Virus record (IMG/VR): IMGVR_UViG_3300027509_000013 | Span: 68,000-131,999 of that record | DNA length: 64,000 nucleotides | Direction: 5' to 3' (one strand) | Source: a virus | Taxonomy: Duplodnaviria; Caudoviricetes | Shown here: piece by piece, positions 1,236 to 15,097 of the stretch | Position numbering within the stretch: position 1 is the stretch's first letter | How the letters are laid out: each line of letters begins with the position of its first letter | Made by a program: the position numbers and the translations under genes | Notes under the pieces: model-generated | Seen by the model: the letters and a program-made list of their open reading frames with translations, nothing else | Told to the model about the DNA's origin: nothing | Database searches by the model: none

Positions 1236-1335
1236 ATCTCTTTCTTACTCTCTCCCTCTCTCTCGTACTCTCTCCTGACTCTCCTTCCATCTCCTGACTC
1301 TGGTACTCACTCTCTCTTCTTGCTCTCTCTCAGGA
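1236..1335. repeat. CT-rich low-complexity tract with short repeats (CTCCTGACTCT x2, TACTCTCTCC x2)
   Basis: Strong pyrimidine skew in a non-coding region, followed by a GC-rich stretch. Confidence 0.6.
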
Positions 1336-2357: not shown

Positions 2358-2370
2358 AGATCGTTGTGTT

Positions 2371-3405
2371 TTAGTATGAGAAATTAGGTGTGATATTGAT
2401 ATTGTAGTTGTGTTTAAAGAAAGCCTTAGTAGCTTTTTTGGAAGAGTAGTCTTTATCGGAGCAGACAATGCCATTTTCCATGTAAGAGCAGAATAGGCAT
2501 CCTAGGATCTTTTTATCTTGAATAAAGGTTCCGGCTAGAGGTTGTTCGGAAGCACATTGAGGGCAGAAGCCTTTGATTCTAGTAGGATCTGATATACGAC
2601 CACCTGCGTAGTAGTTTATAGTATCAGGACAGATAACAAAATGGTTTTCATCTGGGATGTTTGATACTTCCGAGAGATCGAGGTTAAAATAGATCATAGA
2701 ATCCCTCATAGGCATAGCAGGGAATAGATATCCTGGTGTTTTGAGTTCATGAGTACACTTTTGATCTTTCTTGTTGATATTTTGTGTGATTTGCTTGAAT
2801 CCATGGTCAAGCATGATTATTTTTAGTCTAGTGGCCATAGCATCGTTGTAGCCGTATATTTTATCGAAATAAATCTGTCTAGAGTCCTTATCTATCCAAG
2901 TAAGGCTTCTGGCAAGTAGCACTTCGCCGCGTTTCACCCTTTTAGAGATACAAGCAGCAGTGATCATCTGTCTATCGTACCAGTTAGCAGAATCTATTTT
3001 AGCCTGACTCTCTACCATGCAAGTCCATAATCCATTTTTATTATGCTGTCTGTATTTGTAGAAGTTTTGAGGTCTAAAGAGATAAGAAGGGCTATTAGTG
3101 TAGAAGTAATCGATATTAGTAAGCGAGCAAGCTTTGATTATGTCCAGAGCCTTGTTAGTAGTAAGAGAAGAGTATTTACCTACTCTGGCGATGAGTTTAC
3201 CCGGCTTTACCTTACGATTATGCTTATCTAGCAGCATAGGAGAGCCAGGAATAGACTTTAGCGGTTGTTTTCGCATAATCTTAGCCAAAGGAGCTGAAAG
3301 TCGCTTCACGGAGCTTAAATCGTGCATTCCAAGGGTCTCTTGGTACTTAGAAATAGGGGAATAGAAGATAGAATCTTGTATAGATCGTCGCTTAAATCGT
3401 TGCAT
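2371..3405 (-). CDS. hypothetical phage protein (possibly PcfJ-like; C-terminal CxxC...CxxC)
   Basis: 344-aa ORF with TCM, ARSLTW and YFDKIY motifs and a Zn-ribbon-like tail. Confidence 0.6.
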   Translation of the reverse strand: MQRFKRRSIQDSIFYSPISKYQETLGMHDLSSVKRLSAPLAKIMRKQPLKSIPGSPMLLDKHNRKVKPGKLIARVGKYSSLTTNKALDIIKACSLTNIDYFYTNSPSYLFRPQNFYKYRQHNKNGLWTCMVESQAKIDSANWYDRQMITAACISKRVKRGEVLLARSLTWIDKDSRQIYFDKIYGYNDAMATRLKIIMLDHGFKQITQNINKKDQKCTHELKTPGYLFPAMPMRDSMIYFNLDLSEVSNIPDENHFVICPDTINYYAGGRISDPTRIKGFCPQCASEQPLAGTFIQDKKILGCLFCSYMENGIVCSDKDYSSKKATKAFFKHNYNINITPNFSY

Positions 3406-3452
3406 AATGTAAAATTAAAGAAATTTATTATGTATTAGTTGAAAAATTGTCT

Positions 3453-3460
3453 TAGATTTG
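3453..3460 (+). promoter_or_regulatory. Bacteroidota-type -7 promoter element for tRNA operon 1
   Basis: TAGATTTG matches TAnnTTTG. Confidence 0.6.
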
Positions 3461-3498
3461 TTTCGAATTAAGAAGTTAGCAATAGACAATACATTAAA

Positions 3499-3567
3499 GT
3501 GAAAACAAAAATTCAACAAAGGCATCCTCGCAACTATCACACTCGTGATGGAGTAGACGCTATTTGA
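3499..3567 (+). CDS. putative attenuator leader peptide 1 (MKTKIQQRHPRNYHTRDGVDAI)
   Basis: GTG...TGA; the codon run CAA CAA AGG CAT CCT CGC matches downstream Pro/His/Arg/Arg/Gln tRNAs. Confidence 0.8.
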   Translation: MKTKIQQRHPRNYHTRDGVDAI

Positions 3568-3595
3568 CCTTTTGTAAAGAACTATTAGTGTAGAT

Positions 3596-3631
3596 GCCCC
3601 TCATGAGTGAAAGCTTATGAGGGGTTTTTTT
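3596..3631 (+). terminator. intrinsic terminator/attenuator before tRNA operon 1
   Basis: GCCCCTCATGAGT-GAAA-GCTTATGAGGGG followed by T7. Confidence 0.85.
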
Positions 3632-3645
3632 ATTTTGATCAATAT

Positions 3646-3721
3646 AGGGATGTAGCTTAGTGGCCAGAGCGCGTATTTTGGGAATACGAAGGCGAGTGTT
3701 CAAATCACTCCATCCCTACCA
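3646..3721 (+). tRNA. tRNA-Pro(TGG)
   Basis: Cloverleaf; anticodon arm CGTAT-TTTGGGA-ATACG; encoded CCA. Confidence 0.95.
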
Positions 3722-3726
3722 ATTAT

Positions 3727-3802
3727 GGTAGCCTTGTGCTGTTTTGCAATGCAGCCGGACTGTGGATCTGGTGCGACGGGTTGGATTCCCGAGGTTTACC
3801 CA
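3727..3802 (+). tRNA. tRNA-His(GTG), atypical D and T loops
   Basis: CCGGA-CTGTGGA-TCTGG; T loop TTGGATT; imperfect acceptor stem; ends CCA. Confidence 0.8.
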
Positions 3803-3807
3803 ATAAT

Positions 3808-3880
3808 AGCCATGTAGCTCAACTGGCAGAGCGCTTCCCTACGAAGGAAGGGGTTGGGAGTTCGACTCTCTCCATGGTTA
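3808..3880 (+). tRNA. tRNA-Arg(ACG)
   Basis: CTTCC-CTACGAA-GGAAG; canonical D and T arms. Confidence 0.95.
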
Positions 3881-3924
3881 CTAAAATTTTAAAAATCGAC
3901 GGCGCTTCGCGCCTAGATACACAT

Positions 3925-4004
3925 GGTCAGGTAGCCACCCTCCTCTTCTAAAGGAGTAAGTGTAATTGGAGCTGAAAATCGGGGTTCGAATCCCTGTCTG
4001 ATCA
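3925..4004 (+). tRNA. tRNA-Arg(TCT), D-armless with long variable region
   Basis: Acceptor GGTCAGG/TCTGATC; CTCCT-CTTCTAA-AGGAG; T arm CGGGG-TTCGAAT-CCCTG; only 8 nt between acceptor and anticodon arms. Confidence 0.8.
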
Positions 4005-4054
4005 CTATTAAATAATAAATTTATTATTGTATATTTGTAAAAAATATATTAATT

Positions 4055-4321
4055 ATGACAGCATCGGAATTGTTAAATAAAGTACTGACTAAAGTATTTG
4101 CACTTCAATCTTTATCTGGTAAAATCAGGATAAAGACTGAAGAAAATAAAATGCAAGAACTAAATCTGTTTATTGTCTACTCTAATCATCCTGTTCAGTA
4201 TAACAATAAAATAAGTATTCTGAATTCTGATGATCATGATCTTGAAGAAATTTGGGAACAATTCAAAGAAGATGTTGATACCAATATAAGAGCAATTGAT
4301 CATATCGTTAATATGCCTTAA
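4055..4321 (+). CDS. hypothetical protein
   Basis: 88-aa ATG ORF with TATATTTG at 4030-4037. Confidence 0.7.
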   Translation: MTASELLNKVLTKVFALQSLSGKIRIKTEENKMQELNLFIVYSNHPVQYNNKISILNSDDHDLEEIWEQFKEDVDTNIRAIDHIVNMP

Positions 4322-4330
4322 ATTACACAA

Positions 4331-4403
4331 TGATGGTTAGCATAACTGGTTAGTGCATCGGGTTTTGGTCCCGAGGGATGGAGTTCGAGTCTCCGACCGT
4401 CAT
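4331..4403 (+). tRNA. tRNA-Gln(TTG)
   Basis: TCGGG-TTTTGGT-CCCGA; T1-A72. Confidence 0.95.
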
Positions 4404-4418
4404 CTAAATTACTGTTTT

Positions 4419-4715
4419 ATGAATGATACAAACATACCTGGTCCTTCCTTTACGGACTTTCTATATGCTGATATACCTACATTTACATCAGGTGAAGGTG
4501 TAGATACTCTTGAATATTTCAAACCTATCATACCAGATCCTGGTCCTAGACAGTTTAATTTATTTGTAGGCACCGAAGGATTCTTTCTTATTAGTGACGG
4601 GTTTAAAGATGAAAGAGATCGATCAGAACGTAAACACTGGCTAGCTCAAAGAATAGCTTACAGGAACCTGATCGATGGTAGAGAATATTACTCACGATTT
4701 AATAGCCCAGTATGA
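4419..4715 (+). CDS. hypothetical protein (start MNDTNIP)
   Basis: ATG just after tRNA-Gln. Confidence 0.6.
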   Translation: MNDTNIPGPSFTDFLYADIPTFTSGEGVDTLEYFKPIIPDPGPRQFNLFVGTEGFFLISDGFKDERDRSERKHWLAQRIAYRNLIDGREYYSRFNSPV

Positions 4716-4997
4716 GAAGATTTATAGGTCAGGAGATAGATGTCGGATCATTCTATACTTTAAGATACAGGTGGGTTTACCTGCCAAATGAGGCCTACAT
4801 CGAAGTTCCGCGGCAAATCCGACCATCAGTGCACTCAAACAAACAAAACATCCTCTACAGCGGCCAAAAACTACTTATCCGATGAATAAATACTACAAAC
4901 AAGCTATTATTGAAAGATATCAAAGCCACAATGGATGCTTATCATGCTTTATATTTATTATCTGGATTTTAGTAATGCTTATTGCATTGATACTTTC

Positions 4998-5252
4998 TTA
5001 CTCATGAAAAAACAAGAAATAAATCCAAGCACCAATAAATAAAAGTACAGGTATAAAACCAAAAATGAAATAACGAAATTTTCTATAGTATATCATTTTC
5101 TTCTCCTTTATTATAAGCTGATCATAATAGTAGTTAATAGCTTTGGGAATAGAACTACTCCAATAACCAAATGATATAGAAGATTCCTCGTAGTGCTCGA
5201 GAGCTCTTTTCCTCAAATCTTCTAGTGGTGTTTGTGCTGCTTGATTATCCAT
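4998..5252 (-). CDS. small membrane protein
   Basis: C-terminal hydrophobic segment. Confidence 0.65.
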   Translation of the reverse strand: MDNQAAQTPLEDLRKRALEHYEESSISFGYWSSSIPKAINYYYDQLIIKEKKMIYYRKFRYFIFGFIPVLLFIGAWIYFLFFHE

Positions 5253-5691
5253 TGTCTAATTTTATTTTAGCATCTATTTCTAAACCAATTATATCATGCA
5301 ACTCTTTCCTCAGATTCTTAGCTGTCTTTTCTGCTTCCAGTATCCCAGATATCAATTTCTTATGTCTTAATTTAGGATCGTGAATCCTTTTATCTCTAGG
5401 CTTGCTAATTGCAACCGAAGCCAAATCAAAACCTAAATTAGCTATTGCAACATTCAAATCATCTAGATATAAATCTCTAGGAAAACCAAATGCATTTCCA
5501 TCAGTTAATTGCTTGAAAATAATCATTTGAGGAACTGGATTGATTTCATGCTGTTCGCAGATTATTTTAGCCTCTTCTAAGCTTTGCTTGCTGTATCCAA
5601 CATAAGTGCCTCCAGTCCTAGAAGCACATTTTAAAAGATGTATGGTTTTACCACTTCTTCTTGATTTATATAGTATTTGTACATTATTCAT
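5245..5691 (-). CDS. small P-loop NTPase-like protein
   Basis: RRSGKT Walker-A-like and LYLDD Walker-B-like motifs. Confidence 0.6.
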   Translation of the reverse strand: MNNVQILYKSRRSGKTIHLLKCASRTGGTYVGYSKQSLEEAKIICEQHEINPVPQMIIFKQLTDGNAFGFPRDLYLDDLNVAIANLGFDLASVAISKPRDKRIHDPKLRHKKLISGILEAEKTAKNLRKELHDIIGLEIDAKIKLDNG

Positions 5692-5872
5692 TTTTTGATT
5701 TTATTTGTTCTTTAAGCCATAAAAAAGCTATTTCTTTTGATTCAAAATCAGAGCTTGCATCTGATACATATACACCAACTCTTTGTTTAGTGCTTTTAGC
5801 TATAAATGATACATAATGCTCTGTTCCATTATGCTCTACCTCTGTTAATTCTATAAATCTATCTAAAGTCAT
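5684..5872 (-). CDS. hypothetical protein
   Basis: 62-aa ORF directly after a TATATTTG motif (5877-5884, minus). Confidence 0.65.
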   Translation of the reverse strand: MTLDRFIELTEVEHNGTEHYVSFIAKSTKQRVGVYVSDASSDFESKEIAFLWLKEQIKSKNE

Positions 5873-5902
5873 AAATCAAATATACAAAAAATTTTTATTT
5901 AG

Positions 5903-5977
5903 TACACCAGGTGGGCTACGATCCCACGATCCCTCGATTAAAAGTCGAGTACTTTAGTCCAACTAAGCTACTGGTGC
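5903..5977 (-). tRNA. tRNA-Lys(TTT)
   Basis: CTCGA-CTTTTAA-TCGAG; T loop ATCGTAG. Confidence 0.92.
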
Positions 5978-5979
5978 AT

Positions 5980-6055
5980 TGGAGAACGTAGACGGGCTCG
6001 AACCGTCGTATCCGGATTTGCAGTCCGGCGCCTATGCCATCTCAGCCATACGTTC
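5980..6055 (-). tRNA. tRNA-Cys(GCA)
   Basis: CCGGA-CTGCAAA-TCCGG; U73; encoded CCA. Confidence 0.95.
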
Positions 6056-6060
6056 ATTAG

Positions 6061-6128
6061 CACAGGATGAATGAGTCGAACACTCTCGTAAGGGTTTGGA
6101 ATCCTTTTAGCTCCACAGCCTATCCTGC
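6061..6128 (-). tRNA. tRNA-Trp(CCA), shortened D arm
   Basis: AAGGA-TTCCAAA-CCCTT; D arm GCT-GTGG-AGC; G73. Confidence 0.85.
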
Positions 6129-6133
6129 ATAAA

Positions 6134-6216
6134 TGATTGATCCTCGGATTCGAACCGACCTCTGCCATTGCCACTCACTTTTCAGCGCGGGAGGAATCGA
6201 ACCTCAAAATCAATCA
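6134..6216 (-). ncRNA. tRNA-like RNA with two T-arm hairpins
   Basis: Closing stem TGATTGAT/ATCAATCA encloses GAGG-TTCGATT-CCTC and TCGG-TTCGAAT-CCGA. Confidence 0.55.
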
Positions 6217-6219
6217 TAG

Positions 6220-6291
6220 CGACAATGGACAGATTCGAACTGCCGTCCTCGGAACTTCACCCCGATGCTAAGCCACCTCAGCTACATTGTC
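6220..6291 (-). tRNA. tRNA-Phe(GAA)
   Basis: TCGGG-GTGAAGT-TCCGA. Confidence 0.92.
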
Positions 6292-6295
6292 AAAT

Positions 6296-6331
6296 AAAAA
6301 AAGCCTCGCAAAATTAATTACGAGGCTTTTT
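6296..6331 (-). terminator. intrinsic terminator/attenuator before tRNA operon 2
   Basis: Minus strand AGCCTCGTAA-loop-TTGCGAGGCT followed by a T-tract. Confidence 0.85.
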
Positions 6332-6353
6332 CATATGATCTAATCACATAGGT

Positions 6354-6413
6354 TTAGCAATCTCGCAATTCATGCAAAGAGAAACAAAACCATTTTTTTG
6401 TAATTAAAATCAT
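6354..6413 (-). CDS. putative attenuator leader peptide 2 (MILITKKWFCFSLHELRDC)
   Basis: ATG...TAA; AAA AAA TGG TTT TGT TTC matches downstream Phe/Trp/Cys/Lys tRNAs. Confidence 0.85.
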   Translation of the reverse strand: MILITKKWFCFSLHELRDC

Positions 6414-6417
6414 AATG

Positions 6418-6437
6418 CAAATATAGTGTTATATTTG
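6418..6437. promoter_or_regulatory. divergent Bacteroidota-type promoters
   Basis: TATATTTG on minus (6418-6425) and on plus (6430-6437). Confidence 0.65.
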
Positions 6438-6449
6438 TTAAAAAATAAC

Positions 6450-6776
6450 ATGATATCAAAACTTTCTTCAGAAGTAATCGATTTCGTAGCTAAAGTAGAA
6501 GCCAAATATCTTGAATACATGCAGGAGAGATTCCCTAATAATCGTATTGAGGAATTTGAAGTAACTGAAAACAAAAAGTACGTTAAGGTTATTCAATCAG
6601 GTGCCTTCTGCTTTATCAATAGAGAAAATGGGGATATCTATATGGCTAAAACATTTAGTTCTCCATCATTAAAAAATCCTCGAGGTAATTTATTCTCTAA
6701 ACAACTGGGAATGGAAGCGATATCTGAAAGATCTGCAGGAGGTAGAATCCATCCCCATATTAGGTATCTAAGATAA
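6450..6776 (+). CDS. conserved-looking small phage protein
   Basis: KKYVKV...FINRENGDIYMA...PRGNL pattern resembles small phage proteins; own promoter motif. Confidence 0.7.
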   Translation: MISKLSSEVIDFVAKVEAKYLEYMQERFPNNRIEEFEVTENKKYVKVIQSGAFCFINRENGDIYMAKTFSSPSLKNPRGNLFSKQLGMEAISERSAGGRIHPHIRYLR

Positions 6777-6780
6777 AAAG

Positions 6781-6851
6781 CGGGCCATCCCGGGCTCGAA
6801 CCGAGGATAACGGAGAGACAGTCCGTCGTATTACCACTATACTAATGGCCC
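6781..6851 (-). tRNA. tRNA-Asp(GTC)
   Basis: ACGGA-CTGTCTC-TCCGT; G73. Confidence 0.92.
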
Positions 6852-6855
6852 ATTG

Positions 6856-6929
6856 AGCCTAAGCAGGGATTCGAACCCCGGACATCTTCATTACAAATGA
6901 AGCGCTCTGACCAGCTGAGCTACTTAGGC
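6856..6929 (-). tRNA. tRNA-Thr(TGT)
   Basis: CTTCA-TTTGTAA-TGAAG. Confidence 0.95.
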
Positions 6930-7366
6930 AAGTTTTTATTTAAATGAGACATTTTACCTCCACATCTTCGGCTACATGTAGGTGTTTTTCCCATTGATAG
7001 TTTATGATTTATATTTTTACAGTCTTTTGAAAATTCATTTTTACAAATTGGACAAATTAAGGTTATCATTGTTTTAGATTTCCCAATATGCTTATTGTGC
7101 TTCACTATATTCTCTTTTCTGGAAAGGATTTGAAGATTTGATATAGAATCATTCATTTTATTTTCATCTATATGATCTACATGCTCTTCTGGCCTTAAAT
7201 ACCTTCTTACATGACAACTCATTATATATCTAGCATATGAAGTCGAAGTTTTTGTCCCATCTCTCCGAACCAATGCGACAACTCTTCTTGGTTCTTTGTT
7301 TGTATTTACATATCCTGCGATGTAATCTTTATAATATGGCCATCTTAATACTATTTTTGTTGACAT
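6920..7366 (-). CDS. HNH homing endonuclease inside the tRNA array
   Basis: HVDHIDENKMNDSISNLQIL HNH motif and C-terminal CPIC...CSRRC; stop overlaps the tRNA-Thr 5' end. Confidence 0.9.
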   Translation of the reverse strand: MSTKIVLRWPYYKDYIAGYVNTNKEPRRVVALVRRDGTKTSTSYARYIMSCHVRRYLRPEEHVDHIDENKMNDSISNLQILSRKENIVKHNKHIGKSKTMITLICPICKNEFSKDCKNINHKLSMGKTPTCSRRCGGKMSHLNKNLPK

Positions 7367-7386
7367 ATAAATTTATTTACTTAATG

Positions 7387-7463
7387 TATCTGCGGAGAGA
7401 CTTGAACTCTCATGTGACCAATTACGCTTTCGACAAGATATAAGCTTGAGGCGATACGCAGAC
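7387..7463 (-). tRNA. tRNA-Ile(TAT), D-armless with long variable region
   Basis: GTCTGCG/CGCAGAT acceptor; CAAG-CTTATAT-CTTG; GAGAG-TTCAAGT-CTCTC. Confidence 0.8.
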
Positions 7464-7475
7464 AATATAACATTG

Positions 7476-7546
7476 TAGTTCTGGCAGGACTTGAACCTGC
7501 GTCCATGGTATGTAACACCACTGCTCGGCCACTGAGCTACAGAACT
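7476..7546 (-). tRNA. tRNA-Val(TAC)
   Basis: GTGGT-GTTACAT-ACCAT. Confidence 0.92.
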
Positions 7547-7619
7547 AGAGCCGCTTTCATTTATAACGCGCCAACGTCACCTTCTAAAAAGGCAGGTCAT
7601 TACAAGCGGGACCTGTTTG

Positions 7620-7693
7620 AGCACGAATTCGGGATCGAACCGAATCTATTCTAGCTTGGAAGGCTAGCGCACCACCATTTATGCGTCTCGTGC
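7620..7693 (-). tRNA. tRNA-Gly(TCC)
   Basis: CTAGC-CTTCCAA-GCTAG; U73. Confidence 0.92.
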
Positions 7694-7797
7694 TTATGTA
7701 CCTCAAGTTGATCTTAAAACTCTTCCTAGCTCCCTAAATGGGAGGGCTACAGAAATTCAAATCAAAATGGCTTGGGCCATCAGGTAATTTCAGTTAG

Positions 7798-7874
7798 TTG
7801 GCACAATAGGATTCGAACCTATGTTTTCAACCGCTATCTTAGTCATGCGTATCAGGCATGCCGATTATGTGCCA
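7798..7874 (-). tRNA. tRNA-Ile(GAT), D-armless with long variable region
   Basis: TGGCACA/TGTGCCA; CATGC-CTGATAC-GCATG; ATAGG-TTCGAAT-CCTAT. Confidence 0.8.
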
Positions 7875-7879
7875 ATATG

Positions 7880-7953
7880 CTGCTTTGCAAGGGATCGAAC
7901 CTTGGACCTACGGATTAACAGTCCGCCGCTCTAACCAACTGAGCTACAAAGCA
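7880..7953 (-). tRNA. tRNA-Asn(GTT)
   Basis: GCGGA-CTGTTAA-TCCGT; G73. Confidence 0.95.
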
Positions 7954-8012
7954 ATGTAAGGGTAATCGTAAGATCTCGACGGCCACTTCGGACACCCTAA
8001 AATCGATTATTG

Positions 8013-8085
8013 TGGAGAAGAAGGGCTTCGAACCCTCAACCTTCTGATTGCAAATCAGATGCACGTCCTCTTGTGCTTCAACCCC
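8013..8085 (-). tRNA. tRNA-Ala(TGC)
   Basis: TCTGA-TTTGCAA-TCAGA; G3-U70 present; two U-U mismatches in the acceptor stem. Confidence 0.9.
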
Positions 8086-8088
8086 AAA

Positions 8089-8162
8089 TGGCGGGAGAGG
8101 GAGTCGAACCCTCGTCTTGGGCTTATGAGACCCAGCTGGAACCACCTCCAGTCTACCCCGCA
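8089..8162 (-). tRNA. tRNA-Met(CAT), initiator-like
   Basis: TGGGT-CTCATAA-GCCCA; 1:72 mismatch and a GCGGGG acceptor as in tRNA-fMet. Confidence 0.85.
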
Positions 8163-8175
8163 ATATATTTTCCAT

Positions 8176-8213
8176 AAAAAAAGGGACCAGAAAATTAATC
8201 CTGATCCCTTTTT
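8176..8213 (-). terminator. intrinsic terminator/attenuator before tRNA operon 3
   Basis: Minus strand AGGGATCAGGA-loop-TTCTGGTCCCT followed by a T-tract. Confidence 0.85.
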
Positions 8214-8234
8214 GTATATTGTATGTTACTTACT

Positions 8235-8315
8235 TCAATACATAAAGAGACCAGGTGACGTATCATCGCCTCCGGCTACTATTGTAATATTGATATTGGT
8301 AATAATTTGTTTCAC
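8235..8315 (-). CDS. putative attenuator leader peptide 3 (MKQIITNINITIVAGGDDTSPGLFMY)
   Basis: GTG...TGA; 16 consecutive I/T/N/V/A/G/D codons match downstream tRNAs; promoter TACATTTG at 8335-8342. Confidence 0.85.
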   Translation of the reverse strand: MKQIITNINITIVAGGDDTSPGLFMY

Positions 8316-8372
8316 TTTACTTTTTATTGAATGACAAATGTACATTAAGTTTTATTACTAAGCAACAATTAA

Positions 8373-8807
8373 TCAATAATATCTTTTTGCTTGTAATGCT
8401 ATATCTATTTTAGCCCAGTTTACATAGTCTCTCCCTGTCGGGTTTTTGATCAATGGGCAACATATAGATGCATCATCGATATAAATGTGACAATAAGCTT
8501 TAGGACTTGTAGTCCATGTGTACTGTGTCGGATTTGTTTGGATCCCAAATAAATGAATTTCTCTGTCCTTAAACCAATTCACTGCTTGAGCTAGATAGTC
8601 TCCTGACTCAGTTATGATCTGAGGATCTTCTGATTCTGGATTGACTATATTTGATCTCATGGTAAATAAAATCAAATTATGTCCATTGGCTACTAACTTT
8701 TTAAGAGTCTTTACTGCTCCTGGAACGTCCGCTCCGACTTTAGGAAATTCATGTATCACACATGTTCCATCAAAATCTACCCCTACGTATCTATTTTCTT
8801 GCATCAT
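8373..8807 (-). CDS. HAD-superfamily phosphatase
   Basis: VDFDGT motif I, FTMR, K and YIDD motif IV. Confidence 0.85.
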   Translation of the reverse strand: MMQENRYVGVDFDGTCVIHEFPKVGADVPGAVKTLKKLVANGHNLILFTMRSNIVNPESEDPQIITESGDYLAQAVNWFKDREIHLFGIQTNPTQYTWTTSPKAYCHIYIDDASICCPLIKNPTGRDYVNWAKIDIALQAKRYY

Positions 8808-9531
8808 TGAATAAGCTATTTATTTTTAAATCATTATATCTCTTCTGTCCATCAGTGAAGTAATCTATATCTTTTTCACAAACTACTAAAGTTAGATTCA
8901 TATTATCGATTACATTAAGTTTATTGACAGCTAGAGCTAAACTCATGCTTCCTCCATGGGTGTCTAAGATCTTCTCTCCTGGCTTTGCATATTCCATTAG
9001 TAGCCATTCGTACAACTTAACTGGCTTTTGAGTAGGGTGTATTCTCTTTTCGTTGAGTTTCTTGTTCCCTTGCTGCTTTAGTGCCTTTACTCTATCTTTT
9101 CCACAGTATACTCCTTGCATCATTCCAGAGAACATGTAGTAAACGATGTCCATTCTGTTGCTAAAGCTTTGGTAGGCGATCTCACATCCATATTGGTCCG
9201 CGCCATTTGCTACTATCTTATCCCAGACTATTCTGCCGCCAACAAGATTAGGATAGTAGTTTGCACCCCAGATTATTTGATTCTTACTTACTCTAAATAA
9301 TTCGTCAAAGTACTCTGGTGGACTTCTCTGATCATCCCAATCTTTATGTTTGTATTTCGCTTGTTTTACTGGTCTATATGTTCCATTTGGTTGTTGAGCC
9401 CGACCTGATTTTGTAGAAGGCTTACTAGCACCTATTCCATATTCAAGATCTGGCATGGCTAAGTCGAAAAAGTTATCTCCGAGATCACGCATGAAATCCA
9501 TGTTGTCAGTATGTAGAAGAAGTATACTCAT
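8791..9531 (-). CDS. DNA amino-methyltransferase (N6A/N4C, beta class)
   Basis: HPTQKPVKLY and ILDTHGGSMS motifs; catalytic motif reads DLEY. Confidence 0.85.
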   Translation of the reverse strand: MSILLLHTDNMDFMRDLGDNFFDLAMPDLEYGIGASKPSTKSGRAQQPNGTYRPVKQAKYKHKDWDDQRSPPEYFDELFRVSKNQIIWGANYYPNLVGGRIVWDKIVANGADQYGCEIAYQSFSNRMDIVYYMFSGMMQGVYCGKDRVKALKQQGNKKLNEKRIHPTQKPVKLYEWLLMEYAKPGEKILDTHGGSMSLALAVNKLNVIDNMNLTLVVCEKDIDYFTDGQKRYNDLKINSLFNDARK

Positions 9532-9797
9532 TACAGCGCAGTACCAAGAAGTTGAGCCCCGGATTCAGAAGTATCCTTAGACATAACATATTGTTTTTCT
9601 CCTTCATCATCCCAAACACGATTAGAACAATCTGAACAGTATGTTTTCCCTTCTTCAGTAATAGACCATTCTCCTGCTTCTAAGATATCATCTTTTATTG
9701 CAGATTTCTCACTTAAAGCTACACATCCACTCCAAAGCTCATAGTTCTCTTTGCAGATATCACAAGATGCACACCACATTTTTACTTCTTCTATCAT
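9531..9797 (-). CDS. small Zn-binding hypothetical protein
   Basis: CDIC...CSDC. Confidence 0.65.
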   Translation of the reverse strand: MIEEVKMWCASCDICKENYELWSGCVALSEKSAIKDDILEAGEWSITEEGKTYCSDCSNRVWDDEGEKQYVMSKDTSESGAQLLGTAL

Positions 9798-9901
9798 AAT
9801 TTTTTTATTTTCGAATAACCATCCGCTATCGGACTCCCTACCGATACCTGCTCCTTGGTGATCACCTTACTTTGGACGAGCTACGGATGATTGTTCTTCT
9901 C

Positions 9902-10336
9902 TTAATTAAATCCTAAATCAACTACTCTAGTACTCGGCGCTATCTCTTTCCAATTTCCTAATAATACTTCTGCAGGAGGCAAATCTAGTAAGCTTGCTAA
10001 ATCTATATAGGTGTCATAACATGAAGTAACATATAAATCTTTGAAATAACCCATTATAGCCATATGGTCCTGCAGAGAGATGTTTCTTAGTCTTAGATTT
10101 AAAGAACTGTCATCAATGGTCGACATTAGAATCCAGTAGTCTCCATGGTAACTATCAGGTTGAATAACTACACTGGTTGACTTTCCTCTATACTCAAATG
10201 TATTTGGATTAGCATTGAGAAGGATCTTATGAGTATGAATGCCGACATCATCAGTATAATAGATCCAATGATTCTTGTATAAATCTGGAATAGGCTGATT
10301 ATGTCTGTATTCCCAATCTTTGATGTACTTAATCAT
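9902..10336 (-). CDS. hypothetical protein
   Basis: 144-aa ORF overlapping the upstream stop. Confidence 0.65.
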   Translation of the reverse strand: MIKYIKDWEYRHNQPIPDLYKNHWIYYTDDVGIHTHKILLNANPNTFEYRGKSTSVVIQPDSYHGDYWILMSTIDDSSLNLRLRNISLQDHMAIMGYFKDLYVTSCYDTYIDLASLLDLPPAEVLLGNWKEIAPSTRVVDLGFN

Positions 10337-10769
10337 TATTAAACCGTTTTAACTCTCCACAATTTTGTGCATATTTAATAACTCCTTCCAATACATCTTT
10401 AGTCATTGATTCAATGTCATCATCAGTCATGTCTACACCCAATATTGGACCTTGAACTTTAACTGAAATACTTTGAATTTGACCTATTTTTACGAATCCA
10501 CATTTGTGAGGACAGTTAAATACAGAAACTATGATGTTTTTGTCTTTACCTTCTAATGGCATTTTTACGTGTAAGTAACGTGGATCATTTGGTAATTGAT
10601 AAGGATTATATTTCTCTTTCAGTGCTTCAAGCACAGCATAATAAGCCTTTTTTCTGCCTGGCATTATGTTTCCTGATAAATCTAAAGATTCCTTTAGAAG
10701 AGTTATCTCCTTATCATTCAAATCATTCATGTTGTCGCATACATCCTTAATTGCTTCTCTTATTTCCAT
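10329..10769 (-). CDS. hypothetical protein (start MEIREAIK)
   Basis: ATG at 10769, downstream of the tRNA-like RNA. Confidence 0.65.
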   Translation of the reverse strand: MEIREAIKDVCDNMNDLNDKEITLLKESLDLSGNIMPGRKKAYYAVLEALKEKYNPYQLPNDPRYLHVKMPLEGKDKNIIVSVFNCPHKCGFVKIGQIQSISVKVQGPILGVDMTDDDIESMTKDVLEGVIKYAQNCGELKRFNND

Positions 10770-10782
10770 TATTGTGTATTTG

Positions 10783-10900
10783 AGGCCAGAGCAGGACTCG
10801 AACCTGCAACACATCTTATATCGCTAGAAAATAAAGGTGTCTTAAAAATAAGAAGGATACTCCTAAAAAGTACTGCGTCTACCAATTCCGCCACCTGGCC
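10783..10900 (-). ncRNA. Leu-type tRNA-like RNA with TTA anticodon-like loop and ~50-nt insertion
   Basis: GGCCAGG-TGGCGGAATTGGTAGACGC...GCAGG-TTCGAGT-CCTGC-TCTGGCC; arm GTACT-TTTTAGG-AGTAT. Confidence 0.7.
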
Positions 10901-10916
10901 TTAGATTTTAAAAATC

Positions 10917-10953
10917 GTCAGGGGACGATCAATATCCTTCAGAGTCCCCTGAC
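10917..10953. other. strong hairpin
   Basis: GTCAGGGGAC...GTCCCCTGAC perfect 10-bp inverted repeat. Confidence 0.6.
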
Positions 10954-10964
10954 TTTATATGGTA

Positions 10965-11195
10965 CTATGCTTTTACAAGTATTTATGCTGACAATATAAA
11001 GAATCGCTCTACCCCTAAGCTACCCGACCTTGATTGTTTTTTAGAGGTCGGGATGGGATTCGAACCCATGACCTATTCCTTTAGTTTACTTGTAGCCTTT
11101 CCCATGTATAATCCTGATGCTAAAGCTATTACCTCAACATTAAATCTAATATCTAGCATTTAATGAATCTGAACGTAATGCTTATGCTTCAGGTA
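10965..11195 (-). ncRNA. circularly permuted tRNA-like RNA (Y-RNA/YrlA-like topology) with a 5' hexamer-repeat tract
   Basis: Order is T arm (ATGGG-TTCGAAT-CCCAT), loop-closed acceptor (CCCGACCT/AGGTCGGG), D arm (TAGCTTAGGGGTAGAGC), with closing stem TACAAGTA/TACTTGTA. Confidence 0.75.
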
Positions 11196-11197
11196 AT

Positions 11198-11989
11198 TTA
11201 CTTTTTATGCAAATATGCAAACAAACTGTCAGCAGTAATGCTTGACTTTACACTTTCTACTTCATTAGCTTCTTTCAAAGCCTGAATAACAGCAACTCTA
11301 AGCTTAGATATTCTTGACAATACCTCTGCTTTTTCTCTTTGAGAAAAAGCTCCAGTAAATATTTGACGAGAACCCTCACCTAATGTAACAGTAGTTGTTT
11401 TTTGAGCAACTTTAGGAGTATAGCTAGCTCCATCAATCTTAGAAATATTTGGATCTTCTAAGATGTAATCGACTTTTTCAGTTGTTTTATTCTCAGTACG
11501 AACTAATGGGTTTTCATAGATGCCTTTTCTTCCTTCATAAGACTCTTCTACAGTAGGATTCCACTCAACAGCATCTGATCTAACTGGTATGCTTGAATAC
11601 ATACTCTTAAATTCAGGTGAGTCAATCAAAGATTTTAATCTAAGTAATTCTAAAGTAGACAAATCCTTCCACTTAATGTCATCAAAAATCAAATCAGCTT
11701 TAGCTGCGCCAGAAGCATTAGTAGCTTCTTGATCAAAAAGACTATCTATATAATCCTTAGAACTTAAAGAAAAGTAATCTAATTTTTCATCAACAGTAGT
11801 AACCACTAATTGATTGCTTCTAAGTTTTGGGTCATCTACAGTTTGATCTTTTGGCTCATAAGTTTTCTTTTCACCAAAAAAAGCACCTTGATTTTTAGTG
11901 AAAAACTTAATGTAATTTTGAAGTGCTCTTTTAAATTCCTGACCAAGAGCATCGGTCTTTGCTAATAATACATTTAATTTTACATTCAT
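11198..11989 (-). CDS. uncharacterised protein directly upstream of the permuted tRNA-like RNA
   Basis: 263-aa ORF with its own TACATTTG motif (12008-12015). Confidence 0.85.
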   Translation of the reverse strand: MNVKLNVLLAKTDALGQEFKRALQNYIKFFTKNQGAFFGEKKTYEPKDQTVDDPKLRSNQLVVTTVDEKLDYFSLSSKDYIDSLFDQEATNASGAAKADLIFDDIKWKDLSTLELLRLKSLIDSPEFKSMYSSIPVRSDAVEWNPTVEESYEGRKGIYENPLVRTENKTTEKVDYILEDPNISKIDGASYTPKVAQKTTTVTLGEGSRQIFTGAFSQREKAEVLSRISKLRVAVIQALKEANEVESVKSSITADSLFAYLHKK

Positions 11990-12061
11990 TATAATTCAAT
12001 TTTGAATCAAATGTAAACAAAATATTTTTTAATTAAGCAATAAATAAATATTTTTTTAAAA

Positions 12062-12094
12062 ATAGCTGACATCGGTATTAACGATATCAGCTAT
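12062..12094 (-). terminator. hairpin after tRNA operon 4
   Basis: ATAGCTGA...TCAGCTAT inverted repeat followed by Ts on the minus strand. Confidence 0.55.
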
Positions 12095-12098
12095 ATAG

Positions 12099-12186
12099 CG
12101 GTAAGTGAGAGGATCGAACTCTCAAGGCCTTTCAGCTCGCCATGTTTCAAATATGGTTCCGTCGCCTGCCATCGGATTGACCTACC
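12099..12186 (-). tRNA. tRNA-Ser(TGA)
   Basis: CCATA-TTTGAAA-CATGG; long variable arm; G73. Confidence 0.9.
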
Positions 12187-12192
12187 ATGTTG

Positions 12193-12281
12193 CAGAAGGA
12201 GAGGGATTCGAACCCTCGCTACCAATTAAAGTAGACCTCAGATTAGCAGTCTGGTACTATTACCAACTCAGTCACCCTTCT
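12193..12281 (-). tRNA. tRNA-Ser(GCT)
   Basis: CAGA-CTGCTAA-TCTG; long variable arm; G73. Confidence 0.92.
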
Positions 12282-12285
12282 ATAG

Positions 12286-12369
12286 TGGGAATAGATGGAG
12301 TCGAACCACCCGAGTCATTATAACAACAGATTTACAGTCTGTCCCGCTACCCCTACGGTATATACTCCC
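12286..12369 (-). tRNA. tRNA-Tyr(GTA)
   Basis: ACAGA-CTGTAAA-TCTGT; variable arm. Confidence 0.95.
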
Positions 12370-12373
12370 ATTG

Positions 12374-12447
12374 TACACACGATCGGACTTGAACCGATAA
12401 TCAACGCATTTTAAGTACGTCGGCGTTGCCATTTAGCCTACGTGTGC
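12374..12447 (-). tRNA. tRNA-Leu(TAA), short variable loop
   Basis: ACGTA-CTTAAAA-TGCGT; 5-nt variable loop. Confidence 0.88.
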
Positions 12448-12453
12448 TAAAAG

Positions 12454-12537
12454 TACCGAAGGTGGGACTCGAACCCACAAAGGTGTCACTTTCTAAAAGT
12501 GTGCAGTATGCCTAATTCCCACTTAACCCACTTCGGC
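12454..12537 (-). tRNA. tRNA-Leu(TAG), enlarged D region and short variable loop
   Basis: CACT-TTTAGAA-AGTG; GTGGG-TTCGAGT-CCCAC. Confidence 0.82.
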
Positions 12538-12541
12538 AAAT

Positions 12542-12580
12542 AAAAAAAGCCCATTGCGATATTTCACGCAATGGGCTTTT
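12542..12580 (-). terminator. intrinsic terminator/attenuator before tRNA operon 4
   Basis: Minus strand AGCCCATTGCG-loop-CGCAATGGGCT followed by a T-tract. Confidence 0.88.
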
Positions 12581-12603
12581 GTAGTTCTTAACTTATTTCT
12601 ACA

Positions 12604-12669
12604 TCAATACCGGTTGCGTTCGTCGTTAGACAAATAGAGCAGACTCGATAATGATGATGTATTTTTCAT
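12604..12669 (-). CDS. putative attenuator leader peptide 4 (MKNTSSLSSLLYLSNDERNRY)
   Basis: ATG...TGA; TCA TCA TTA TCG AGT CTG CTC TAT TTG TCT matches Leu/Leu/Tyr/Ser/Ser tRNAs. Confidence 0.85.
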   Translation of the reverse strand: MKNTSSLSSLLYLSNDERNRY

Positions 12670-12680
12670 TGTATTATTTG

Positions 12681-12752
12681 TAACCCGTGAGATAATCGAA
12701 ATCTCCGCTTCACCTTGAAAAGATGACGTCCTGACCACTAGACCAACGGGCC
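12681..12752 (-). tRNA. tRNA-Glu(TTC)
   Basis: TCATC-TTTTCAA-GGTGA. Confidence 0.92.
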
Positions 12753-12793
12753 TAGGTTCCTCAATTTCTATGTTAATATTGTTTCTCACAGTG

Positions 12794-12801
12794 CAAATGT
12801 A
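12794..12801 (-). promoter_or_regulatory. Bacteroidota-type -7 promoter element for tRNA-Glu and operon 4
   Basis: TACATTTG. Confidence 0.6.
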
Positions 12802-13431
12802 CTATAAAATATTGATTCGTTCCCAATCCCACTCAATTAATTCGTCACTGTTATCTCCTTCGATGTAAATTCCTCTATGTGTAACCTTCTTGGCTTCAAG
12901 CTCAGTGTCATCAAAAATAAACTTGTCTCCTGCTATCAGATCATAGATGTTATAGATGATTCTAGTACCATCCTTCATCTGTTTTCTAGCTGATTTCGCT
13001 TTTTCATCTGCTAATTCATTGCCCGGATTGCCATTATGTGATCTTACCCACTTGACATATAGCTTTTTATCTAGTATTCTGGCTAAGTTGATCATTCGTT
13101 CCCAAAGGTGCCTAGCAAAGACTCTCTCTCCATTGCTTTTCATCCATCGATTGTGCTCCCAGGTGTACATCCACCTAGCGACTCCTAATGCTACATACTT
13201 ATTGTCTGTGTAAATTACTGCCTTTCTAAATGACTTGGTATTCTCTACTAGATACTGCAAACTGGCTAATACTGCTCTGACTTCTAACTCAGCACTGTTG
13301 CCTTCTCCATTTCCAAGATTGATTTTTGGGTCATTTCCATCTTCATAGATTACTGAAGCCCATCCTCCAAGACCACCTTTGCCCAAACCTGAGCCATCGG
13401 TGTAAATTGTTGTGTCATAATTCATTCTCAA
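12802..13431 (-). CDS. rnhA: ribonuclease HI
   Basis: YTDGS, AELE, YTDNKY and WVRSHNGNPGNELAD motifs. Confidence 0.93.
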   Translation of the reverse strand: MRMNYDTTIYTDGSGLGKGGLGGWASVIYEDGNDPKINLGNGEGNSAELEVRAVLASLQYLVENTKSFRKAVIYTDNKYVALGVARWMYTWEHNRWMKSNGERVFARHLWERMINLARILDKKLYVKWVRSHNGNPGNELADEKAKSARKQMKDGTRIIYNIYDLIAGDKFIFDDTELEAKKVTHRGIYIEGDNSDELIEWDWERINIL

Positions 13432-13433
13432 AT

Positions 13434-13679
13434 CTACGAAAAAAATAAATTATTTTTATTAATAGTATCACTTTCTTCGTAGATGAGTTGAATTACTCCT
13501 TTTTTGATGTTTCTGATTTTGACTGAAAATTCGCTGATACTAATTCCTCGAGATGAGCAAAACTCTATCGCAGGATCTTCTACTTTGTGTCGGGGGATGC
13601 TTTGGTTGAAGTAATCAGACAATAGATCAAATTCTTCTGGATATAGTTCTTTTATAATTTTTTCTAAGGTCGTGGACAT
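13434..13679 (-). CDS. hypothetical protein
   Basis: Packed ORF. Confidence 0.65.
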   Translation of the reverse strand: MSTTLEKIIKELYPEEFDLLSDYFNQSIPRHKVEDPAIEFCSSRGISISEFSVKIRNIKKGVIQLIYEESDTINKNNLFFS

Positions 13680-13680
13680 T

Positions 13681-14046: not shown

Positions 14047-14047
14047 T

Positions 14048-15053: not shown

Positions 15054-15097
15054 TAGTCGTCTGGTTTTTTACTTTGTGTTTACATTTGCCACACTGC

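Follow-up and report, generated by a model that had tools for sequence, protein, structure and literature searches.

We found that each of four groups of tRNA genes in a Caudoviricetes phage is preceded by a very short leader ORF and an intrinsic terminator, and that each leader is written in the codons that its own group of tRNAs reads, so that the phage probably makes a tRNA group only when ribosomes run short of it. We found no description of such control for tRNA genes in the literature, in agreement with the original prediction, which knew of no attenuation described for phage tRNA arrays. The leaders have the anatomy of trp/his-type ribosome-mediated attenuators, and in related phages that carry different tRNA sets the leader composition follows the set.

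Results

Four tRNA units with codon-matched leaders

We analyzed a window of 64,000 nucleotides (positions 68,000 to 131,999 of IMG/VR record IMGVR_UViG_3300027509_000013). ARAGORN at default settings found 18 tRNAs in the window, Rfam gave 19 tRNA matches at gathering score, and ARAGORN at a relaxed threshold found 25 genes in bases 1-16000. The observation under test was that four separate tRNA clusters share the order TAnnTTTG promoter, leader ORF of 19-26 codons, terminator and tRNAs, with leader codons matched to each cluster. It was confirmed at the expected place, and the codon match is far beyond chance. We refer to the four units as C1 to C4.

Unit C1 lies on the plus strand. A Bacteroidota-type -7 promoter motif (TAnnTTTG, 3453-3460) lies 46 nt before the start of a 22-codon leader (3499-3567, GTG start, TGA stop). 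Its control run of six codons (3514-3531) specifies Gln twice, Arg twice (one AGG, one CGC), His and Pro, such that each of the five tRNAs of the unit has a cognate codon; five of the six codons are decodable by strict wobble and six of six if U34 reads four ways. The terminator has a 13-bp stem (3596-3625) with a T-run to 3631, and ends 14 nt before tRNA-Pro. The tRNAs (3646-4404) are Pro(tgg), His(gtg), Arg(acg) and Arg(tct), followed by an ORF (4055-4321) and then Gln(ttg). Since a second TAnnTTTG motif (4030-4037) belongs to this ORF and also lies upstream of tRNA-Gln, the gating of tRNA-Gln may be partial.

Unit C2 lies on the minus strand, as do C3 and C4. Its promoter motif (6418-6425) lies 12 nt before the ATG, which implies a leaderless or nearly leaderless mRNA. 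The 19-codon leader (6413-6354, TAA stop) contains a run of six codons (6381-6398) for Lys twice, Trp, Phe twice and Cys, all six decodable by strict wobble and covering four of four tRNAs. The terminator (6328-6301, T-run to 6296) lies 4 nt before tRNA-Phe, and the tRNAs (5902-6291) are Phe(gaa), an unassigned 89-nt spacer (6130-6218), Trp(cca), Cys(gca) and Lys(ttt). In both C1 and C2 the upstream protein genes are divergent, so the hairpins end no gene but the leader.

In C3 the promoter motif (8335-8342) lies 27 nt before the GTG of a 26-codon leader (8315-8235, TGA stop). Its run of 16 codons (8259-8306) specifies Ile five times (ATT, ATC and ATA all used), Thr three times, Asn, Gly and Asp twice each, Val and Ala. 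Twelve of 16 codons are decodable by strict wobble and 15 of 16 with four-way U34, where the ATA codon is read by Ile(tat), a tRNA called only by ARAGORN at the relaxed threshold. The terminator (8210-8181, T-run to 8176) lies 12 nt before tRNA-Met, and the tRNAs (6780-8163) are Met, Ala, Asn, Ile(gat), Gly, Val and Ile(tat), followed by an HNH endonuclease ORF (7366-6920) and then Thr and Asp.

Unit C4 has a 21-codon leader (12669-12604, ATG start, TGA stop) whose run of ten codons (12628-12657) specifies Ser five times (four TCN, one AGT), Leu four times (two UUR, two CUN) and Tyr, addressing both Ser and both Leu isoacceptors. Eight of ten codons are decodable strictly and ten of ten with four-way U34, covering five of five tRNAs. 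The terminator (12578-12547, T-run to 12542) lies 4 nt before the first tRNA. The tRNAs (12098-12537) are one with anticodon UAG by Infernal alignment (Leu by anticodon), Leu(taa), Tyr(gta), Ser(gct) and Ser(tga).

Three details of the original prediction required correction. First, C4 has no promoter motif of its own, the motif (12801-12794) lying instead upstream of tRNA-Glu (12752-12680), which precedes the C4 leader on the same strand and has no terminator before it. TAnnTTTG occurs 93 times in the window against 72.6 +/- 8.2 expected. Second, the claim that all 20 amino acids are covered once tRNA-Glu is included rests partly on a weak call, since tRNA-His (3728-3801) was found only by relaxed ARAGORN and not by Rfam. 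Third, the claimed complementarity between leader 3' end and terminator 5' arm is not individually significant in two of the four units, as described below.

To estimate how often such runs would arise by chance, we measured background amino-acid frequencies from the genome and obtained probabilities of 7.2e-5, 1.3e-4, 3.0e-5 and 3.8e-7 for the runs of 6, 6, 16 and 10 codons in C1 to C4, respectively. Small ORFs abound in this AT-rich DNA, but among the 2999 ORFs of 15-35 codons in the 132-kb genome only 2, 3, 1 and 1 reach these runs, the leaders included. When each leader was scored against each cluster, the 4x4 matrix was diagonal, with values of 4.2, 3.7, 4.6 and 6.0 on the diagonal and at most 1.0 off it. 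In the window 5/5, 4/4, 7/8 and 5/5 tRNAs have a cognate codon in the run.

Leader composition follows tRNA content in related phages

If the leaders are attenuators, then their codons must follow tRNA content when that content changes. This strong prediction holds, and the comparison across phages is the decisive evidence. A search of related phages for such co-variation, and a shuffle test of leader composition against cluster identity, had been put forward in advance as checks on this reading. We found 41 distinct terminator-preceded tRNA units in 142 sources, and 13 of these units had leader runs with P <= 2e-4. All 13 matched their own cluster better than any of the other 40. The true pairing summed to 80.9, while permuted pairings gave a mean of 17.3 and a maximum of 42.7, and 0 of 50,000 reached the true value (0 of 20,000 in an earlier version). 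Homologous units were treated as independent in these permutations, and background frequencies in the comparative analysis were rounded values set by hand. In the 13 strong units, 105 of 127 run codons are decodable by a tRNA of the same unit under strict wobble, and 122 of 127 if U34 reads four ways.

The related phages in which the same architecture recurs with different tRNA sets include a 518-kb megaphage record and the published Prevotella phage Lak-A1, and individual records show how the leaders follow their tRNAs. In related-phage record G009, seven consecutive Gln codons precede four tRNA-Gln genes, and five Lys codons precede five tRNA-Lys genes. In record G018, tRNA-Gly and tRNA-Thr sit in the Cys/Phe/Trp/Lys unit, whose leader run holds Gly and Thr codons, while the run of the Met/Ala/Ile/Val/Asn/Asp leader holds none. 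Glu and Leu codons appear in the Pro/His/Gln/Arg-type leader in the three records where tRNA-Glu sits in that unit (G003, G006 and G018), and Leu codons in the two where tRNA-Leu does (G003 and G006); the window's run has neither. In Lak-A1, 21 of 41 leader residues fall in a six-amino-acid set with a background of 0.19 (binomial P 3e-6). Peptide sequences are not conserved, while composition follows the tRNA content. Given this, together with a product of the four window probabilities of about 1e-19, it is very unlikely that the match is chance or that the ORFs encode functional micropeptides unrelated to the tRNAs.

Homologous arrays without matching leaders had been named beforehand as evidence that would count against the reading, and the architecture is indeed absent from most related phages with tRNA arrays. 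Under the strict finder, 0 of the 33 tRNAs called in the three loci of related phage G001 have a terminator directly upstream, 21 of the 41 terminator-preceded units have no matching ORF, and a metagenome scan added no strong unit. In the window itself, a terminator directly precedes the UUA-anticodon tRNA at 10900. Such cases, and the fact that some attenuators fold as antiterminated when untranslated, would be compatible with an unspecific signal, in which leader and terminator report global translation capacity or transcription-translation coupling, as in pyrBI-type control or a simple dampening insulator, and set tRNA output by infection stage rather than by the supply of particular tRNAs. 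We consider this unlikely, since an unspecific sensor has no need for codons that follow the downstream tRNA set, and the match and its co-variation would be left unexplained.

Predicted pairing between leader ends and terminators

The four terminators have stems of 11-13 bp, hairpin dG of -17 to -24 kcal/mol and T-runs of 7, and are placed 4-14 nt before the first tRNA. In all four leaders the best pairing partner of the terminator 5' arm lies in the last 5-6 codons. For C1 this strand (3540-3556, codons 14-20) pairs with dG -15.1 kcal/mol and a mononucleotide-shuffle fraction of 0.014, and for C3 (8243-8256, codons 20-25) 12 consecutive pairs give dG -17.8, with 0 of 2000 shuffles as good. 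The candidate strands of C2 (6355-6369, codons 15-20, dG -9.8, fraction 0.054) and C4 (12608-12619, codons 17-21, dG -9.5, fraction 0.12) are not significant alone, and with automatically defined arms they gave 0.43 and 0.095. Whether a mutually exclusive antiterminator forms is therefore left undecided by this test. Across relatives, 9 of 16 units with matching leaders beat shuffles at 0.05 (median 0.0275), as compared to 3 of 20 units without a matching leader (median 0.50).

We next folded the leaders with a masked ribosome footprint. In the Gln attenuator all 12 nt of the 5' arm are sequestered while the A site is on any codon up to the last Gln, between 0 and 4 nt are sequestered from two codons later until the last sense codon, and 6 at the stop codon. 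C3 and C4 of the window behave the same way. The model is not clean for C1 and C2, where the 5' arm is again partly paired when the ribosome is near the stop codon, and without a ribosome C1, C3 and the Gln unit fold into the antiterminated form. The behavior of C1 and C2 could be taken to favor a reversed logic, in which efficient translation promotes read-through as positive feedback and stalling causes termination, and no direct data fix the direction. However, the stop codon lies 17-23 nt before the terminator 5' arm, so that a terminating ribosome cannot reach the hairpin, and the strand complementary to the 5' arm lies under a ribosome that has reached the end of the ORF. This is the classical geometry for termination when translation is smooth, and we regard the reversed logic as improbable.

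Direct sensing between RNA and tRNA, as in a T-box riboswitch, was also considered, because each run displays cognate codons for the tRNAs of its unit. Rfam searches gave no T-box match at gathering score, or at E <= 1 over 3400-12900, and no T-box-like conserved bulge was seen. The runs always lie in frame within an ORF that has a start and a stop at fixed distances from the terminator, and six to sixteen adjacent specifier codons have no precedent. This reading is therefore very doubtful. T-boxes likewise read tRNA status and choose between terminator and antiterminator, but they bind uncharged tRNA directly, without a ribosome or ORF, and control synthetase and amino-acid genes.

Discussion

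We propose that each tRNA operon of this phage is gated by a ribosome-mediated transcription attenuator, and we assign this reading a probability of roughly 0.8. In this model host RNA polymerase starts at a Bacteroidota-type promoter and transcribes the leader, which a ribosome translates while the polymerase moves on. Different codons of the central run address different isoacceptors. If all these aminoacyl-tRNAs are plentiful, the ribosome runs to the stop codon and covers the last leader codons, the terminator hairpin forms, and transcription ends before the first tRNA gene. If any of them is scarce, the ribosome stalls in the run, the last leader codons stay free and pair with the terminator 5' arm to form the antiterminator, and the polymerase reads into the tRNA genes. 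The new tRNAs relieve the stall, making each module a closed negative-feedback loop on the supply of its own tRNA species.

The analysis supports the interpretation given in the original prediction, namely that the phage senses which charged host tRNAs are scarce and transcribes only the matching module. Our computations establish the parts and their order, the codon/tRNA match, its co-variation across phages and the position of the strand that would serve as antiterminator, whereas translation of the leaders, coupling of ribosome and polymerase, and stalling-dependent read-through are inferred, there being no expression, ribosome-occupancy or 3'-end data for this or any related phage. Two of the leaders start with GTG, and no ribosome-binding signal can be checked in Bacteroidota. 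The trigger, whether starvation, anticodon nucleases, host shut-off or demand, is likewise inference; under amino-acid starvation extra tRNA would not help, so it is uncertain for which signal the circuit evolved. More tentatively, the phage could replace host tRNAs selectively, and only when they are destroyed or outrun by anticodon-nuclease defences, by phage-induced host shut-off or by late-gene codon demand. In this view, which the evidence does not rule out but which we consider less likely than not, the circuit is a counter-defence and homeostasis system shared by a lineage of Bacteroidota phages that includes the Lak megaphages, and its attenuator scaffolds are duplicated and re-coded whenever tRNA genes move between modules.

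This would be the first case known to us in which tRNA genes themselves are regulated by leader-peptide attenuation, with a product that directly relieves the signal, giving a minimal tRNA homeostat. It offers a testable answer to the open question of how and when large phages deploy their tRNA arrays, and links that question to tRNA-targeting host defences. The composite leaders would be natural multi-input (OR-gate) translational sensors, and they show modular evolution, in that the same terminator scaffold is re-coded for new tRNA sets. The system occurs in published Lak megaphage genomes of the human and animal gut, and is thus not a curiosity of a single contig. It also gives a practical annotation rule, because leader composition predicts which tRNAs belong to one transcription unit.

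Phage tRNA arrays have been viewed as compensation for host tRNA loss or anticodon-nuclease defence. The arrays encode a full tRNA set, which suggests independence from host tRNAs, but such accounts treat them as simply expressed, and conditional, module-wise control by codon-matched leaders is not part of them. Polycysteine short-ORF attenuators on leaderless mRNAs of mycobacteria (bioRxiv 10.1101/834739) also tune downstream operons through control codons, but they respond to cysteine supply, control cysteine-related protein genes, are not in phages and do not control tRNAs. The pheST (pheM) attenuator of E. coli phenylalanyl-tRNA synthetase governs a component of the translation apparatus in response to the supply of one charged tRNA, although it is a bacterial chromosomal element that controls a synthetase gene and is specific to a single amino acid.

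The leaders of amino-acid biosynthetic operons (trpL, hisL, pheL, leuL, thrL and the ilv leaders) share with the phage units a promoter-proximal short ORF with a run of control codons. In those operons the end of the ORF overlaps a strand that competes with the 5' arm of an intrinsic terminator, as the last leader codons of the phage units would do in the proposed model. The seven Gln codons of G009 parallel the seven His codons of hisL. In the phage, however, the regulated genes are tRNAs and not enzymes, most leaders are composite and address up to 12 tRNA species at once, and the elements are phage-encoded behind Bacteroidota-type promoters, some apparently on leaderless mRNAs. None of the Rfam leader families (His_leader, Phe_leader, Thr_leader, Trp_leader, Leu_leader) reached its gathering score. 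Weak sub-threshold matches were found for C2 over 6294-6406, scoring 28.5 against a threshold of 55 (Phe), 26.2 against 49 (His) and 22 against 55 (Thr), with the alignment carried mostly by the terminator.

Four tRNA units behind short ORFs and intrinsic terminators

All tRNAs of the 131,999-bp IMG/VR virus record lie in its second half, the window examined here. ARAGORN at default settings found 18 tRNAs, and Rfam found 19 at gathering score. ARAGORN at a relaxed threshold found 25 in bases 1-16000, adding His(gtg), Arg(tct), Ile(gat), Ile(tat), Ser(tga), a tRNA at 12453-12537 whose anticodon was aligned by Infernal as UAG, and an intron-bearing tRNA with anticodon UUA. The tRNAs form four units, each directly behind a strong hairpin with a run of seven T, plus a solitary tRNA-Glu. 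Each hairpin is preceded by a short ORF. In unit C1 (+) the leader at 3499-3567 has 22 codons and the terminator lies at 3596-3625, with the T-run reaching 3631. In C2 (-) the leader at 6413-6354 has 19 codons and the terminator lies at 6328-6301, with the T-run to 6296. In C3 (-) the leader at 8315-8235 has 26 codons and the terminator lies at 8210-8181, with the T-run to 8176. In C4 (-) the leader at 12669-12604 has 21 codons and the terminator lies at 12578-12547, with the T-run to 12542. The Bacteroidota -7 motif TAnnTTTG lies 46, 12 and 27 nt before the starts of leaders C1, C2 and C3, respectively, and also before tRNA-Glu, which precedes the C4 leader, although the motif is only mildly enriched in the window as a whole (93 matches against 72.6 +/- 8.2 expected). 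In C1 and C2 the neighbouring protein genes are divergent, so these terminators end nothing but the leaders. The observation on which the original prediction rested, of tRNA clusters behind codon-matched leaders and terminators, was confirmed.

The modules group tRNAs by kind. C4 holds only Leu, Ser and Tyr, the class with a long variable arm, while C1 holds Pro, His, Gln and Arg, which are mostly CNN codons, and the same groupings recur in the related phage record G018. Protein ORFs sit inside two of the units: an HNH endonuclease at 6920-7366 (-) lies between Ile(tat) and Thr in C3, and an 88-aa ORF without family match at 4055-4321 (+), with its own TAnnTTTG at 4030-4037, lies between Arg(tct) and Gln in C1. 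Both leaders still contain codons for the tRNAs beyond these ORFs. Spacers of 70-100 nt between tRNAs, at 6130-6218, 7547-7618 and 7694-7797 (-), carry T-arm-like pieces but are called as tRNA by neither tool, and the nature of these spacers is unexplained. Between the promoter motif and tRNA-Glu, at 12753-12789 (-), a reading frame holds three Glu codons among its last six codons before the tRNA. There is no terminator between them, and a 61-codon ORF runs through the tRNA into the C4 leader frame, an arrangement that may be due to chance.

Leader codons match the tRNAs of their own unit

The centre of each leader is a run of codons whose amino acids are those of the unit's tRNAs. The C1 run has six codons for Gln x2, Arg x2, His and Pro; the C2 run has six codons for Lys x2, Trp, Phe x2 and Cys; the C3 run has sixteen codons for Ile x5, Thr x3, Asn x2, Gly x2, Asp x2, Val and Ala; and the C4 run has ten codons for Ser x5, Leu x4 and Tyr. 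With amino-acid frequencies measured from the phage's own ORFs, runs this long have probabilities of 7.2e-5, 1.3e-4, 3.0e-5 and 3.8e-7, respectively, and of 2999 small ORFs in the genome only 2, 3, 1 and 1 reach them. The leader-by-cluster score matrix is diagonal. The match extends to isoacceptors, since the two Arg codons are AGG and CGC, for the tct and acg tRNAs, the Ser codons include TCN and AGT, the Leu codons include UUR and CUN, and the Ile codons include ATA, for the tat tRNA. The tRNA without a codon in its run is Met(cat) of C3, although an ATG does lie later in that leader.

Attenuator-like anatomy of the leaders

We next examined whether the leaders could compete with the terminators. 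The stop codons lie 17-23 nt before the terminator 5' arms, and in all four leaders the most stable partner of the terminator 5' arm lies in the last 5-6 codons. The pairing energies for C1 to C4 are -15.1, -9.8, -17.8 and -9.5 kcal/mol, and the fractions of 2000 mononucleotide shuffles that do as well are 0.014, 0.054, 0 and 0.12. In minimum-energy folds this strand is itself partly paired with the control-codon region or the codons just after it, which gives the four-segment layout of trp-type attenuators. We also folded the nascent RNA with 30 nt masked around the A site to represent the ribosome. For C3 the terminator 5' arm is sequestered while the ribosome sits on codons up to the 16th and is free beyond the 18th, and for C4 it is sequestered up to the 13th codon and free just after. 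C1 and C2 are less clean, in that the arm is partly paired again when the ribosome nears the stop codon.

Searches against known RNA families gave no alternative identity for these elements. No Rfam family other than tRNA reaches its gathering score, and no match to a T-box appears even at E <= 1 over 3400-12900. The C2 region gives sub-threshold matches to the Phe, His and Thr leader families (28.5, 26.2 and 22 bits, against thresholds of 55, 49 and 55), but these rest mainly on the terminator and we do not count them as membership.

Relatives of the phage

A near-identity search of 3400-12850 against GenBank phages found 174 records, none covering 80% of the query, and only single tRNAs matched; no close relative exists in that collection. 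The large terminase is nearest (26% identity) to that of Cellulophaga phage phi14:2, a member of Crassvirales, the first 50 kb of which carry no annotated tRNA; this phage was not pursued further. Several proteins were tried as handles to relatives without success: the methyltransferase gave 3 loci with no tRNAs, RNase H gave none, and the large terminase gave none in IMG/VR. A TnpB/IS605 OrfB-type gene at 20205-21362 (+), with Pfam OrfB_IS605, Cas12f1-like TNB and HTH domains, gave no close relative in the bacterial genome collection by exact-word scan. No host genome handle was therefore obtained, and whether Bacteroidota chromosomes use such leaders was not tested. A DUF7873 protein encoded between C3 and C4 did serve as a handle. 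An alignment of 37 homologues retrieved 40 IMG/VR loci and 80 metagenome loci, and tRNA maps of 29 records guided 18 further regions. The protein is 42% identical to one of the Prevotella Lak megaphages, and the tRNA regions of phage Lak-A1 were included as well.

Leader composition follows tRNA content across phages

Co-variation of leader and tRNA content in related phages, and comparison with shuffled pairings, had been named in advance as a test of the attenuator reading. To carry it out, a script looked for a hairpin plus T-run within 160 nt upstream of a tRNA, listed the small ORFs that end near it, and scored their longest run within the downstream tRNA set. It found 41 distinct units in 142 sources, of which 13 score P <= 2e-4, 7 are weak and 21 show nothing. 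The 13 strong units lie in six records, namely the window (4), and the related records G018 (3), G009 (3), G003, G006 and G021. All 13 match their own cluster better than any other of the 41. The summed score of the true pairing is 80.9, whereas permuted pairings give 17.3 +/- 4.5 with a maximum of 42.7, and 0 of 50,000 reach the true value. An earlier version of this test had left out the G003 Ala/Lys/Ile/Gly unit and one artefact unit whose hairpin was the T-arm of the preceding tRNA; the values given here are from the test repeated on all 41 units. We note that background frequencies in these scripts were rounded values set by us, that homologous units are not independent, and that tRNA calls at relaxed thresholds include some doubtful ones. 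The interpretation put forward in the original prediction, that these leaders act as ribosome-mediated attenuators, is supported both by internal replication within the window and by this cross-phage co-variation.

Individual cases show how the leaders change with their units. G009, a 518-kb record, has seven Gln codons (six CAA, one CAG) before three tRNA-Gln(ttg) and one tRNA-Gln(ctg), and five Lys codons (three AAA, two AAG) before four tRNA-Lys(ttt) and one tRNA-Lys(ctt). In G018, tRNA-Gly, tRNA-Thr and tRNA-Arg(tct) sit with Cys, Phe, Trp and Lys, and the 11-codon run of that leader contains Gly, Thr and Arg codons besides Cys, Phe, Trp and Lys, while the leader of the Met/Ala/Ile/Val/Asn/Asp unit has a 13-codon run with no Gly or Thr. 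In G003 and G006 the Pro/Gln/His/Arg unit also holds Glu and two Leu tRNAs, and the runs contain Glu and Leu codons. In G018 this unit holds Glu, and the leader has Glu codons. The C1 unit of the window has neither, and neither does its run. In G021 a 16-codon run addresses all 12 tRNAs of its unit. In Lak-A1 a 42-codon leader and terminator precede the tRNAs His, Pro, Arg, Arg, Gly, Cys and Met, and 21 of its 41 residues fall in that six-amino-acid set (background 0.19, binomial P 3e-6).

The existence of homologous arrays without matching leaders had been named beforehand as evidence that would count against the reading, and many relatives with tRNA arrays do lack the architecture altogether. 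G001, a related record with 49% identity in the DUF7873 protein, has 32 Rfam tRNA matches but no leader/terminator architecture. In its locus L004, for example at 9300-9376, 11230-11301 and 12690-12765, several tRNAs are preceded instead by long hairpins that share a conserved 10-nt motif in the 5' part of the loop, which may be a different processing or control element. The scan of the 80 metagenome loci gave no new strong unit, and one weak unit (L112) appeared in the final set.

The antiterminator pairing was also examined in the relatives. Among 16 units with a matching leader, the pairing between the leader and the terminator 5' arm beats 400 shuffles at 0.05 in 9 (median 0.0275), while among 20 units without a matching leader it does so in 3 (median 0.50). 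In the significant cases the partner lies 2-33 nt before the stop codon. In the Gln attenuator of G009 the masked-ribosome model is clean: all 12 nt of the arm are sequestered for every A-site position up to the last Gln codon, between 0 and 4 nt are sequestered from two codons later to the last sense codon, and 6 at the stop codon. Several attenuators within G009 and G021 share a terminator scaffold and antiterminator core but carry different control runs, which suggests duplication followed by re-coding. In these two records the Lys leaders share a conserved C-terminal stretch after the Lys run. Most leaders in the window and in the related loci L047, L048, L053, L056 and L062 begin with Met followed by Lys, Thr or Asn codons, whatever the tRNA set. 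This may reflect A-rich start regions for initiation without a Shine-Dalgarno sequence in Bacteroidota.

A model for the control of phage tRNA operons

The simplest account is classical ribosome-mediated attenuation applied to tRNA operons. In this view, smooth translation of the leader buries the antiterminator strand, and transcription stops before the tRNAs, whereas a stall on any control codon frees that strand, and the module is transcribed. Because the products are the very tRNAs whose shortage would cause the stall, each module would be a negative-feedback loop, and composite leaders would act as OR gates over the module's species. The arrangement of the parts, the codon match and its co-variation were read directly from the sequences, while the regulatory behaviour is inferred from them; function has not yet been shown experimentally, no RNA dataset containing this sequence was found, and the only public run holding it is a marine metagenome DNA run that may be its source. 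The candidate causes of a tRNA shortage in nature are tRNA-cleaving defences, host shut-off and late-gene codon demand, none of which is addressed by any result here. Amino-acid starvation would also trigger the circuit, but would not be relieved by it. Full-text literature searches found no description of leader-peptide control of tRNA genes, and the main text of the Lak megaphage paper (PMC6784885), examined in passages and without its supplements, which may bear on this, has 31 hits for 'tRNA' and 0 for 'attenuat', 'leader' or 'terminator'. The class of mechanism is textbook, while its target, the composite leaders and the phage setting are new to us.

Other RNA elements in the window and in related loci

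The tRNA with anticodon UUA (ochre-suppressor type) lies at 10782-10900 (-) and has a predicted 39-nt intron. It sits directly behind a hairpin plus T-run at about 10955-10910, where no codon-matched leader was found. One leader (C2) ends in TAA. At 10985-11105 (-) an element reads like a circularly permuted tRNA, with a T-arm and 3' acceptor strand followed by the 5' acceptor strand and D-arm. It gives a full-length but sub-threshold Rfam match to YrlA (Y RNA-like), with 34 bits against a gathering score of 69, and YrlA did not reach gathering score in 7 related loci. The same arrangement sits just downstream of the DUF7873 gene in the related loci L009, L017 and L046. Finally, one relative carries a tmRNA gene (L007, 1339-1646) and another carries two type-P3 twister ribozymes (L017, 837-920 and 7619-7701), all above Rfam gathering scores.
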